Shown piece after piece: positions 21,589 to 58,822 of a stretch of DNA of 64,000 nt; the stretch's first letter is position 1; each line of letters begins with the position of its first letter. The stretch is from a virus (lineage: Duplodnaviria; Caudoviricetes), in IMG/VR virus record IMGVR_UViG_2974767555_000001, positions 11,688 to 75,687 of that record, one strand, 5' to 3'. The notes under the pieces were generated by a model that did no database searches, was not told where the DNA came from, and worked only from the letters and a program-made list of their open reading frames with translations. The position numbers were made by a program, and so were the translations under genes.

Positions 21589-21651
21589 GGAGCTGGTCTG
21601 GTACCTGCTCCGGTGGTCGGGAGTCTAGCAACCTATACCGACAGCGCGCCA
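21589..21651 (-). promoter_or_regulatory. Cassette promoter/operator/hairpin (leftward copy)
   Basis: Minus strand: TGGCGC-N18-TAGACT; palindrome at 21623-21638; hairpin GGAGC-A-GGT-ACCAG-ACC-A-GCTCC. Confidence 0.75.
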
Positions 21652-21709
21652 CGGATCGGGCCGATTACCCGGGATGACCTGGACCGACAGACTGAATCGG
21701 CCCAGGTAC

Positions 21710-21771
21710 TTGCGGCCCGTTTGTCTAGAGAGCTATAACTGAATCACCGGGGCCGGTGACCGACCAGCCCC
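21710..21771 (+). promoter_or_regulatory. Cassette promoter/operator/hairpin
   Basis: TTGCGG-N18-TATAAC; GTCTAG-AGAG-CTATAA at 21723-21738; hairpin at 21749-21771. Confidence 0.85.
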
Positions 21772-21794
21772 CACCCCTACGAGAGGAACCAGAA

Positions 21795-22778
21795 ATGCCC
21801 GCCACCGTCGAGTTCACCGCGATCACCCCCGATGGCCAGAAGGTCACCCGCAACAGCAAGACCAAGCAGTACACCCACGCCGTCGCCACCCTGCGCGTCC
21901 GCGACAACGACACCGAGGCCACCTGGGGGATCGCCAGCTTCCACGAGGGTGTGACCAACGCCTTCAACGCTGGCCGGTCGTACAAGAACGCCAAGAGCTA
22001 CCGGGTGGTCGAGGTCGAGGTGACCGCCGTCAAGGGCACCCCGTCGCCCGAGCACACGTTCGCCATCGAGCACAAGGAGCGCCTGGCCCAGGTCGCCGAG
22101 GACGCCCCGGTCGAGGTCGAGGACGCCCCCGTCGAGGACGCCCCGGTCGCCGAGGTCGAGGTCGCCGAGGTCGAGGTCGCCGACCAGGATGACACCACCG
22201 AGGTCGCCGAGGTGGTCGAGGTCGCCGACACCCCCCAGGAGCGCCGGAACCGGAAAGCGCGTGAGCGCCGCGCCGCCAAGCGCGCCGCTGCCGCCAGCGA
22301 GAAGCAGGCCCAGGACGACGCCATCGCCAAGAGCGAGTGCCTGACCGTGACCGAGGTCGAGGAAGCACCGAAGGCCAAGGGTCGCAAGGCACCCCGGGCC
22401 AAGGTCACCCCGCTGTCGGAGATCGGCCTGACCGGGAGCGCCATCCTGGACGCTGCCGTCGCCGCCGCCGCCGACGAGATCGCCGAGGACGCCCCGGTCG
22501 AGGTCGCCGAGGTCGAGGCCCAGGTGGTCGAGGTCGAGGTGACCGAGGACAGCGCCGACACCCAGATCACCCAGGTCCTGGAGGTCACCGCCGACGACAT
22601 CGCCGCCGCCAAGGCCGGGATGGTCAAGGGTGAGAAGTGCCCCGGGTACGGGATGGTGGTGCCCGGTGACGGTGCCAGCAAGGGCAACGGGTCGCACAAG
22701 CGGGTGGAGTGCCCGGTCTGCGGTCACAGCGTCAAGCGCTACGACAAGTCGGGCAAGCTGGGTTCGCACCGGGTCTGA
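21795..22778 (+). CDS. Acidic low-complexity protein with C-terminal Zn-binding module
   Basis: RBS GAGAGGA; VEVAEVEV/EDAP repeats; ends CPGYG...CPVCGHSVKRY...KLGSHRV. Confidence 0.85.
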   Translation: MPATVEFTAITPDGQKVTRNSKTKQYTHAVATLRVRDNDTEATWGIASFHEGVTNAFNAGRSYKNAKSYRVVEVEVTAVKGTPSPEHTFAIEHKERLAQVAEDAPVEVEDAPVEDAPVAEVEVAEVEVADQDDTTEVAEVVEVADTPQERRNRKARERRAAKRAAAASEKQAQDDAIAKSECLTVTEVEEAPKAKGRKAPRAKVTPLSEIGLTGSAILDAAVAAAADEIAEDAPVEVAEVEAQVVEVEVTEDSADTQITQVLEVTADDIAAAKAGMVKGEKCPGYGMVVPGDGASKGNGSHKRVECPVCGHSVKRYDKSGKLGSHRV

Positions 22779-22799
22779 GGCCCGCGCTGCCGGATCGGC

Positions 22800-22832
22800 A
22801 GGGGGCCGGTGGGGTAACACCACCGGCCCCCT
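22800..22832 (+). terminator. Terminator-like hairpin
   Basis: AGGGGGCCGGTGG-GGTAACA-CCACCGGCCCCCT after the stop; no strong U-tract. Confidence 0.6.
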
Positions 22833-22876
22833 CGTCGTCTCGGCAGGCGCGCATGCAGGCAGTTTCGCGCAGGTGG

Positions 22877-22938
22877 TTGCGGGTGGGCCGTCTAGTTTGC
22901 TATAACTGAGTCACCGGGGCAGGTACCAGACCAGCCCC
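22877..22938 (+). promoter_or_regulatory. Cassette promoter/operator/hairpin
   Basis: TTGCGG-N18-TATAAC; GTCTAG-TTTG-CTATAA at 22890-22905; hairpin at 22916-22938. Confidence 0.85.
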
Positions 22939-22956
22939 CAGACCCCAGGAGGGGAC

Positions 22957-23205
22957 ATGACCACCACCGCCACCATCACCAGCAAGCGCGTCAAGGCCGG
23001 GGTCTACCGGGTCGCCGCCGCCGATGGTCGGGCCTGGATGGTCTTCAGCTACCAGCTGGACCCCACCGTGGGGTACGGGTCGGGCACGGTCTGGCAGGTC
23101 AACGGTGACCCCAACGCCGAGACCTACACCCCGGACCCCGGGTTCGACCCGGCGTACACCAAGGCCCAAGCGCTGGAGTGGTTGACCGCGCTGGTCAACG
23201 CCTGA
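22957..23205 (+). CDS. Hypothetical protein
   Basis: RBS GGAGGGG; strong C/G-ending codon bias. Confidence 0.8.
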   Translation: MTTTATITSKRVKAGVYRVAAADGRAWMVFSYQLDPTVGYGSGTVWQVNGDPNAETYTPDPGFDPAYTKAQALEWLTALVNA

Positions 23206-23251
23206 CCCCCCACCCCCCACCTACCCACCACCACCCGAAAGGACCCCGACC

Positions 23252-57271: not shown

Positions 57272-57336
57272 CCGTTGACCGGCCCGACACCCCCGACCCA
57301 GTTTGGGCCGGGGGGTAAACCGGTTTGGGCAGGTGG

Positions 57337-57401
57337 TTGCGGGTTGTCGGTATAGTGCCCTATACTCGAACTATCACCGGGGCAGGTACAAGACCAGCCC
57401 C
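57337..57401 (+). promoter_or_regulatory. Cassette promoter/operator/hairpin
   Basis: TTGCGG-N18-TATACT; perfect palindrome GTATAG-TGCC-CTATAC at 57350-57365; hairpin at 57379-57401. Confidence 0.85.
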
Positions 57402-57421
57402 ACAACCCGAGAGGGGTCAGC

Positions 57422-57640
57422 ATGACCAGCATCTTCACCGTCACCGTTGTCGGCGCGACCAAGGAGGCCACCTACACCTCCGTGTTCCCGTCCGAGCCCG
57501 CTGCCGTGGGCTACCTGCGCGACATGTTTGGGGAGGAGGTGGACCTGGCCGATGCGGAGACCACCGAGGAGGTGGTGGCCGCCATCAGCGCCACCGAGGA
57601 GGTGGAGTACGTGATGGTGGACGAGCACGACCTGCCGTAA
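57422..57640 (+). CDS. Small acidic protein
   Basis: 72 aa, many E/D residues; follows the cassette SD. Confidence 0.75.
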   Translation: MTSIFTVTVVGATKEATYTSVFPSEPAAVGYLRDMFGEEVDLADAETTEEVVAAISATEEVEYVMVDEHDLP

Positions 57641-57717
57641 CCGGCACGGGGGGTGGCCACCCCACCCCCCACCACCACCCCAACCCCCACCCGATCACCA
57701 GCCAGAGGACAAGCCAG

Positions 57718-57894
57718 ATGACCGCCACGTGTGACTGCCTGACCCAGTACGACGCCACCCTGCCGCACGCTGGGGAAATCTGCCCCCTGGCCGATCCCGA
57801 CACCAAGCTGGACACCCTGCGCGAGCTGGCCGAGCTTGCCGCGTACAAGGACATCGGTGCCGCGCTGATCGCCTACCGGCAGCTGACCCGCTGA
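57718..57894 (+). CDS. Small hypothetical protein
   Basis: RBS GAGGA; MTATCDC...H...CP. Confidence 0.6.
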   Translation: MTATCDCLTQYDATLPHAGEICPLADPDTKLDTLRELAELAAYKDIGAALIAYRQLTR

Positions 57895-57935
57895 CCCACC
57901 ACCCACCCATCACCACCACGGAAGGACCTACCGAC

Positions 57936-58271
57936 ATGACTACCGCCACCATCGACATCGCCACCCCCACCCAGGAGCTGGAGTGGGAAGCGGTCGGCCA
58001 GACCGGGTTACGCGCCGCCGACCCCAACGGGAACGGGACCTGGCGAATCTGGATGGGCACCGTCAGCAACTACCAGCTGGTGTTCATCGACAACGACGGG
58101 ACCGAAACCAAGTACGGCCCCCGTCGTTGGGGTGGTCGCCAGGTGGGTCGGGACGCCGAGGGTAACCGCATCATGGAGTACGGCTGGTTCACGCTGTCGC
58201 ACGGGTGTTTTCGCGAGGGTCTGATCGCCGCGCGGGAGTACGCCGCCAAGCTGGTCGCCAGCACCCGCTGA
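57936..58271 (+). CDS. Hypothetical protein
   Basis: RBS GAAGGA. Confidence 0.7.
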   Translation: MTTATIDIATPTQELEWEAVGQTGLRAADPNGNGTWRIWMGTVSNYQLVFIDNDGTETKYGPRRWGGRQVGRDAEGNRIMEYGWFTLSHGCFREGLIAAREYAAKLVASTR

Positions 58272-58368
58272 TCGAACGTGAACGGGGGTCGGGCCTCCCC
58301 TCTCTGACCCGACCCCCAGCGACATCACTACCTCACCCAACACCACCACCGAAGGAGAACACCCAAAC

Positions 58369-58725
58369 ATGACCACTGCCACCACATCTGCCTGGATCGC
58401 CAGCGTGCCCGCCATCGTGGTCGCCGCCGCCGAGGAATCGGGGTGGACCCTGATCGGAGACGAGACCAGCGACACCCGTTCGCTGGTGCTGGGCAAGGAC
58501 CGCCACGAGCTGCTGGTGCGGTTCCGACCCAACGGCGCGATCCACTACGCGGCACACAACGTGTACAGCGCCAAGGGGGTGCCCGACAGCGTGCCCGAGG
58601 TCTACGCGCGCGGTCAGCTACCGGACGAGGACGCACCTGTCAGCGGTGAGGCGACCGACGCCCGGTACACCCCTGCCGCGCTGCTGGCACACGTCCTGGG
58701 TCAGATTGGCGGGTACCGGTTGTGA
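58369..58725 (+). CDS. Hypothetical protein
   Basis: RBS AAGGAG. Confidence 0.7.
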   Translation: MTTATTSAWIASVPAIVVAAAEESGWTLIGDETSDTRSLVLGKDRHELLVRFRPNGAIHYAAHNVYSAKGVPDSVPEVYARGQLPDEDAPVSGEATDARYTPAALLAHVLGQIGGYRL

Positions 58726-58792
58726 CCACCCGCTGACCCACCCCCCGACCACCCCCAACCCGCGCCGGTCGGGGGTGCGTTATGGCTGGTAG

Positions 58793-58822
58793 TTGCGGCA
58801 CTCCGGTCTAGTGAGCTATACA
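58793..58822 (+). promoter_or_regulatory. Cassette promoter/operator, leaderless copy (no hairpin)
   Basis: TTGCGG-N18-TATACA; GTCTAG-TGAG-CTATAC at 58806-58821; ATG 6 nt after the -10. Confidence 0.8.

Follow-up and report, generated by a model that had tools for sequence, protein, structure and literature searches.

A 64-kb stretch of DNA (the window, from whose first base all positions are counted unless stated otherwise; it spans 11688-75687 of a phage record 75,687 bp long) contains two plastic regions, at 20-27.6 kb and 51.5-59 kb, in which ten groups of small accessory genes are each headed by a common unit of about 100 bases. This unit, hereafter the module, combines a promoter, a 16-base palindrome (the 16-mer), a hairpin (HP1), and a ribosome-binding site. 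The phage is a temperate mycobacteriophage of Cluster Y type. It shares 95-97% identity with Mycobacterium phage Nadezda, which was assigned to Cluster Y in PMC12699233; the Cluster Y phages Bipper and Cracklewink are more distant relatives. From comparison of the four genomes we conclude that the module is genuine and well defined, a regulatory repeat of Cluster Y phages that has apparently gone undescribed.

The anatomy of the module is defined by an alignment of 30 distinct promoter copies from the four phages. Specifically, i) a conserved element with the consensus TT.G.GCWGGT.G, which the initial annotation of this DNA had not included, directly abuts the -35 box on its upstream side (its GCWGGT core, at -45 to -37 of each promoter and for example at 22866-22876, resembles one arm of HP1); ii) the -35 hexamer is TTGCGG in eight copies, TTGCGT at 26315, and TGGCGC at 21651 on the minus strand, so that all ten -35 positions originally listed do hold a copy; iii) the -35 box is followed by seven variable bases and then by the 16-mer, GTMTAG-N4-CTAKAM, with invariant half-sites and a central 4 nt that vary in this genome; and iv) the right half of the 16-mer supplies the -10 box (TATAAC, TATAAA, TAGACT, TATACT, or TACCCT), leaving a spacer of 18 nt generally and 17 nt at 26315, in agreement with the 17-18 nt first proposed. 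The TTGCGG hexamer is identical to that of P_R, the rightward promoter at 29677 (TTGCGG, 17 nt, TAATAC) that opens the early operon. Because polymerase needs no specific bases in the spacer, the invariance of the left half of the 16-mer there is the signature of a dimer-binding site.

HP1 has the form GGGC-A-GGT, a loop of 4-6 nt, and ACC-A-GCCC; its stem begins 10-14 nt downstream of the 16-mer, and 17-27 nt separate the hairpin from the start codon, with a linker that is C-rich in all copies and a Shine-Dalgarno (SD) sequence in between. The parts of the module are separable: the promoter occurs without HP1 at 58793 and at 20160-20237, and HP1, linker, and SD sequence occur without a promoter in four copies within operons that the initial annotation had not listed (HP1 at 23957, 24326, 53024, and 54787), where the distance to the start codon is retained. 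The leaderless genes at 58829 and 20235 have their ATG 7-8 nt after the -10 box, a spacing that fits the predicted transcription start and thus provides an internal check on the promoter assignment; the ATG at 58829 is also the start selected by the annotators of Nadezda. With a predicted start 7 nt after the -10 box, only about 1-5 unpaired transcript bases would precede HP1. Several modules have a GC hairpin ahead of them, frequently one that follows a C-rich tract (22797-22836 and 59032-59059 are examples), and the unit headed by the module at 22877 appears to extend to a helix-turn-helix (HTH) gene ending at 25027.

Table 1. Module copies, partial copies, and associated control features in the window (-35 and -10 boxes as predicted).
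Feature	Position	Strand	Details
Full module	21568-21663	-	weak -35 TGGCGC; 16-mer 21623-21638; HP1 21589-21611 (GGAGC/GCTCC stem); heads BrnT-like toxin gene 21322-21570
Full module	21698-21797	+	-35 21710; 16-mer 21723-21738; HP1 21749-21771; ATG 21795; heads 327-residue gene
Full module	22865-22959	+	-35 22877; HP1 22916-22938; ATG 22957
Full module	24997-25092	+	-35 25009; -10 TACCCT; HP1 25049-25069; ATG 25090; overlaps stop codon of upstream HTH gene
Full module	26303-26398	+	-35 TTGCGT 26315; 17-nt spacer; HP1 26353-26375; ATG 26396; heads 400-residue gene
Full module	51457-51555	+	-35 51469; HP1 51511-51532 (4-nt loop); ATG 51553
Full module	52450-52549	+	-35 52462; HP1 52501-52522; ATG 52547
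Full module	55483-55582	+	-35 55495; perfectly palindromic 16-mer 55508-55523; HP1 55537-55558; ATG 55580; promoter part unlike Nadezda ortholog
Full module	57325-57424	+	-35 57337; -10 TATACT; HP1 57379-57401; ATG 57422
Promoter-only copy	58781-58831	+	-35 58793; 16-mer 58806-58821; ATG 58829, 7 nt after -10; leaderless, no hairpin
Promoter-less copy	23947-24008	+	HP1 23957-23979 (stem fully paired); C-rich linker; SD; ATG 24006
Promoter-less HP1 copy	24316-24378	+	HP1 24326-24348, GGC/GCC variant, 6-nt loop; GTG 24376; weakest copy (21.6 bits)
Promoter-less HP1 copy	53014-53073	+	HP1 53024-53046, GGC/GCC variant; GTG 53071 (CDGP-domain gene)
Promoter-less HP1 copy	54776-54833	+	HP1 54787-54808, GGC/GCC variant; ATG 54831
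Divergent control region	20160-20237	.	upstream element and two TAG-N4-CTA sites; right-hand site overlaps -10 (TAGACT) of leaderless gene 20235
Candidate regulator gene	20235-20468	+	77-residue leaderless protein; C-terminal HTH (sigma region 4 / HTH_23 type); 63% identity with Bipper gp39
Terminator-like GC hairpin	22797-22836	+	-34 kcal/mol; closes unit upstream of module 22877
Similar hairpin	52303-52325		
Similar hairpin	57284-57323		
Similar hairpin	59032-59059		

Pattern and covariance-model scans of the entire 75.7-kb genome found no copy outside the two regions, as the initial annotation had maintained. The palindrome and the hairpin it described are likewise far more frequent than chance would allow: the 16-mer pattern has 17 matches on both strands against 0.45 expected, and the HP1 pattern 16 against 0.38 (a hairpin-like match at 52852, within a coding region and lacking a 3′ arm, was discarded). 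Promoter copies number 10 in this phage, 9 in Nadezda, and 8 each in Bipper and Cracklewink, the 16-mer being nearly invariant in the latter two. Of 50,697 phage records, a module query matched Nadezda, Bipper, and Cracklewink and no others; within IMG/VR the HP1 pattern recurs in multiple copies only in Bipper, 53 other contigs having single chance matches; and the combined 16-mer and HP1 pattern had, among 185,579 bacterial genomes, only 23 matches, each single and attributable to chance, scattered over unrelated taxa and none of them in a mycobacterial prophage. One promoter design with an invariant half-site in the spacer, conserved in four phages, gives good support at the level of sequence logic to the co-regulation originally proposed.

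We favor, with a probability of roughly 0.55, a reading in which the modules would be standardized accessory-gene cassettes that combine a SigA promoter, a phage repressor acting on the 16-mer, and HP1 as a 5′ RNA element. Host RNA polymerase with SigA would initiate at TTGCGG-N18-TAnnnN; a phage-encoded dimeric DNA-binding protein, distinct from the immunity repressor, would dock on the 16-mer across spacer and -10 box and shut all ten promoters together; transcripts would start within a few bases of HP1, which would hide the 5′ end at a set distance before the ribosome-binding site and would stabilize or insulate the mRNA, probably being recognized by a specific factor; and the hairpin-plus-ribosome-binding-site piece would be reused in operons without a promoter, with units ending at GC-rich hairpins.

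The leaderless HTH protein encoded at 20235-20468 would be the best candidate for this repressor, an assignment that we make tentatively and at somewhat less than even odds. In all four phages related 16-mer-type sites cover the divergent promoters between its gene and a 70-residue gene (19938-20150, minus strand); in Bipper the site there is a perfect palindrome, and in this phage the control region at 20160-20237 is a degenerate two-site variant that adds to the copies first listed. The protein is 63% identical between the lineages, with conservation of its sigma region 4-like HTH, and its Nadezda ortholog is encoded at 31953-32186. The immunity region of this phage (29511-29715) contains no TAG-N4-CTA site, nor does the Bipper region 39965-40190.

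The same promoter features could be read in the opposite sense, with the 16-mer and GCWGGT as sites for a phage activator or sigma-like factor, and the modules as promoters switched on with a predicted delayed-early or middle timing. Most -10 boxes do lack the final T, the conserved element next to the -35 box occupies the position used by class II activators, and two proteins could play the part: the 77-residue protein, whose HTH resembles sigma region 4 and some homologs of which are annotated as sigma factors, and a 301-residue multi-HTH protein encoded in the early operon. We nevertheless consider an activator unlikely, in that the -35 box is a good host-type hexamer shared with P_R, a site over the -10 box normally blocks polymerase, and a 16-mer-type site also covers the leaderless promoter of the 77-residue candidate itself, which would suit autorepression. 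Three or four HTH motifs are present in the 301-residue protein (31751-32656), and although annotators placed the corresponding Bipper and Cracklewink proteins in the WhiB family, it itself lacks a WhiB Pfam match.

That HP1 is an RNA element is suggested by several features of the 45 matches to the HP1 model across the four genomes. All are sense to the downstream gene, including both minus-strand copies; 99.6% of cells are paired, and shifting one arm abolishes pairing; covariation occurs at two of the seven pairs (U:A becomes C:G in seven rows, at four loci, and G:C becomes A:U once), and one-sided changes at pairs are absent; and loops differ in sequence and in length (4-6 nt) around fixed stems. 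Together with the retained distance to the start codon, these features favor an RNA element over a DNA site. An internal A.A mismatch (sometimes C.A) is also conserved, being replaced by a C-G pair at one locus only. Because the stem sequence and this mismatch are kept, HP1 is probably read by a specific factor, and the near invariance of the stems makes a sequence-specific reader likely. A more speculative proposal, to which we assign a low probability, is that a dedicated RNA-binding factor, from phage or host, docks on HP1; it draws on the invariant stem, the kept mismatch, and the position of HP1 at the 5′ end of nine transcripts and at four internal cistrons. The Nadezda "RNaseE" gene was rejected as a partner for HP1, since it encodes not a nuclease but a sigma region 4-type HTH protein; the name of this gene (gene 8, 4313-4741 in the left arm and outside the window), which matches only HTH and sigma region 4 models, looks wrong. 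Searches of Rfam returned no match at the gathering score in either block besides the tRNA genes at 21029-21181, and none overlapping a module.

The C-rich linker invites another interpretation of HP1. Mycobacterial RNase E favors C-rich single strands in 5′ untranslated regions (PMC10641625), and the linker may therefore be a cleavage site. HP1 and linker could more generally be an RNA processing or antitermination signal, in which host RNase E would cut the C-tract between two hairpins, or a phage factor on HP1 would enable read-through of the unit-ending hairpins. The C-richness of the linker in every copy, the promoter-less copies between cistrons, and the poor U-tracts of the unit-ending hairpins would all fit, as would the position of HP1 just downstream of the promoter, reminiscent of a lambda-type nut site (boxB), where a phage N-type protein binds and suppresses terminators further along. 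We regard such a signal as improbable, given that no N-like or RNA-binding protein was recognized among the phage proteins analyzed and that every unit has its own promoter, so that read-through would be unnecessary.

The initial annotation further held that the modules serve as recombination joints, which is supported in part. Relative to Bipper, gene gain, loss, and inversion fall at module edges: i) an extra gene lies exactly between a module start codon and the following gene (22971/23252); ii) a terminator and promoter piece is present or absent at an HP1 edge (23944-23957), the Bipper ortholog of the copy at 23957 having a terminator and a complete promoter in place of the 12 bases that separate stop codon and HP1 in this phage; iii) a 1.3-kb block, made up of a module, genes, and the mobile element MPME1, occupies the interval from the end of a gene to the following module (24957-26299); and iv) the whole toxin cassette has the opposite orientation in Bipper and Cracklewink, where it occupies the same locus after tRNA-Met. 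Relative to Nadezda, none of five indels ends in a module. Module borders, moreover, double as gene borders, where phage mosaic joints fall anyway, and this weighs against the claim. The module at 26315 is absent from Nadezda through a 1.7-kb deletion (25485-27179; Nadezda 37820/37821) which removes MPME1, the module, and most of the 400-residue gene; in Nadezda gene 49 the reading frames on either side are fused, and the deletion breakpoints lie within coding sequence. Also relative to Nadezda, the promoter half of the module at 55495 has been swapped for another version in a manner resembling gene conversion.

These rearrangements bear on whether HP1 might act as DNA, either as a second operator or as a site for a recombination protein, in promoter looping or cassette shuffling. 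Such a site would consist of two inverted GGGCWGGT half-sites, with a third half-site upstream of the -35 box where the conserved element resembles an HP1 arm; the stem sequence is conserved beyond the needs of pairing, the changes relative to Bipper end at module edges, and a comparable proposal has been made for the stem-loops of T4-type phages (PMC2839356, PMC4122927). We find this improbable for the following reasons: the arms are separated by 4 to 6 bp, depending on the copy; they show a systematic difference at their central base, which is A on the top strand in both and so suits a mismatch in RNA rather than a symmetric DNA site; all copies are sense to their genes; the copies without a promoter, located within operons, keep a fixed distance to start codons; and the paralogs show no concerted evolution. 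Identity between paralogs is 72-75% within genomes and 74% between genomes; concerted evolution was therefore rejected, and the similarity of the copies is not maintained by gene conversion.

A number of observations weigh against the cassette reading that we favor. The terminal T that is usual in mycobacterial promoters is present in just three of the ten -10 boxes, and a generic sigma-70 scan detects none of the ten module promoters. HP1 stems are nearly invariant and their covariation comes from two pairs, and a DNA palindrome would covary likewise; a second small hairpin, formed by the C-tract and SD sequence, appears in most copies, weakly above shuffles (mean z -1.0). The proposed regulator is linked to the 16-mer solely through the sites at its own promoter, one of the two sites at 20160-20237 retains just half of the palindrome in this genome, and alternative HTH proteins exist, at 24626-25027 and, with several HTH motifs, at 31751-32656.

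As the initial annotation stated, the sequence of the motif matches neither of the two systems that it most resembles, the SAS (start-associated sequences) and ESAS (extended SAS) of Cluster K mycobacteriophages and the promoter-early stem-loop (PeSL) cassettes of T4-type phages (PMC2839356, PMC4122927). These are the closest known systems, and the module is a new sequence version rather than a new kind. In the Cluster K phage Adephagia, ESAS are SigA-like promoters with inverted repeats, under a regulator other than the immunity repressor, in the same two genome regions (PMC3203893, PMC11373665). The module resembles Cluster K ESAS and SAS in that a dispersed, conserved, intergenic SigA-like promoter with an inverted repeat is followed by a start-associated signal at the ribosome site; in copy number and placement (7-19 copies in both, located in the interval from the lysis genes to the integrase and at the right end); in being absent from the intergenic region between repressor and early promoter; and in orientation, which is given as a single one for both, the copy at 21651 here lying on the minus strand. 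The resemblance is one of architecture only, the module having ten copies here, a 17-18 nt spacer, and a 16-bp dyad, and the ESAS unit being about 46 bp with an imperfect inverted repeat. The sequences are unrelated, and no Cluster K genome was among the matches to the module query in the phage records searched. The 13-bp SAS consensus GGGATAGGAGCCC, allowing up to 2 changes and placed 3-9 bp before start codons, has 2 matches in the 64 kb against 1.78 expected, none of them at a module. Unlike ESAS repeats, which are reported not to support RNA pairing, the downstream repeat of the module is a short hairpin with compensatory changes; and unlike SAS, which cover the SD sequence, its conserved part stops about 20 nt before the start codon.

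PeSL cassettes likewise pair a strong host-type promoter with a G/C stem-loop and are repeated in plastic regions before small genes without known function, in units that are transcriptionally insulated, as those here would be. Indels between relatives lie at the PeSL repeats; here several joints relative to Bipper lie at module edges, and none of the five indels relative to Nadezda does. The PeSL stem-loop, however, lies upstream of the promoter as a terminator and is not accompanied by an operator, whereas HP1 lies inside the transcript, 10-14 nt after the 16-mer, and lacks a U-tract; terminators here are separate from HP1 and not conserved in sequence. For PeSL, mini-circles and PeSL-to-PeSL recombination have been shown by experiment (PMC2839356, PMC4122927).

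A more distant comparison is with the Cluster A stoperators, in which many copies of one short protein-binding site give a single phage protein genome-wide control of phage transcription, as the 16-mer would here. Stoperators are asymmetric 13-bp sites for the immunity repressor that lie within transcribed regions and stop elongation. Unlike the stoperators (named in PMC3203893), the 16-mer is a dyad positioned on promoters and does not occur in the immunity region.

ESAS and SAS have been known since 2011 and are still without a regulator or mechanism. The Cluster Y version is cleaner: its parts are sharply bounded and separable, its hairpin shows compensatory changes, and it offers a specific candidate regulator at a putatively autoregulated leaderless promoter. 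Nadezda, Bipper, and Cracklewink are in culture on M. smegmatis, and the module could thus be a tractable system for accessory-gene control independent of the immunity switch in temperate actinophages; it may also serve as a compact, insulated expression part for mycobacterial genetics. Were HP1 to have a dedicated factor, it would control mRNA stability or translation throughout the accessory regulon at a post-transcriptional level, adding a regulon-wide RNA operator to the DNA operator and giving a first mechanistic handle on the start-associated signals of mycobacteriophages, testable in cultured Nadezda and Bipper.

The units drive a BrnT-like toxin, DUF7457, CDGP, and zinc-ribbon proteins, and many small proteins without assigned function. 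No cargo protein matches a defense model, and the early, host-takeover, and anti-defense labels originally attached to these genes are conjectural; the sole hints of a role in host takeover or anti-defense are the toxin and several very acidic small proteins. The acidic products are encoded at 24006-24233, 57422-57640, 55580-55816, 25266-25778, and 20465-20662, with for example 15 Asp and Glu against 1 Lys or Arg in 75 residues. DNA-mimic and anti-restriction proteins are often strongly acidic. The toxin cassette (21288-21663, minus strand) comprises promoter, hairpin, gene, and terminator, and no antitoxin gene is adjacent. At the end of the leaderless HTH operon stand tRNA-Arg(TCT) and tRNA-Met(CAT) (21029-21181), and a strong hairpin at 21288-21314, after the two tRNAs, could terminate both converging units.

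MPME1 (25836-26275) lies just upstream of the module at 26315 and is 99% identical to copies in many other mycobacteriophages. Public RNA runs sharing words with 20-28 kb cover only this element, from other phages, and one wastewater run contains only scattered fragments of low identity. The temperate lifestyle of the phage is indicated by a tyrosine integrase (27734-29113, minus strand) and an adjoining XRE-type repressor (29110-29511, minus strand). The first gene to the right of P_R (29715-30152) encodes a membrane-type protein, and a gene in the excise/cro position of Bipper (40190-40414) and Cracklewink is missing from this phage and Nadezda. The attP core, at about 29189-29210 in the 3′ part of the repressor gene, resembles a tRNA T-arm, and the encoded repressor ends in ...GAVA; this arrangement of repressor, attP, and integrase is the layout of integration-dependent immunity.

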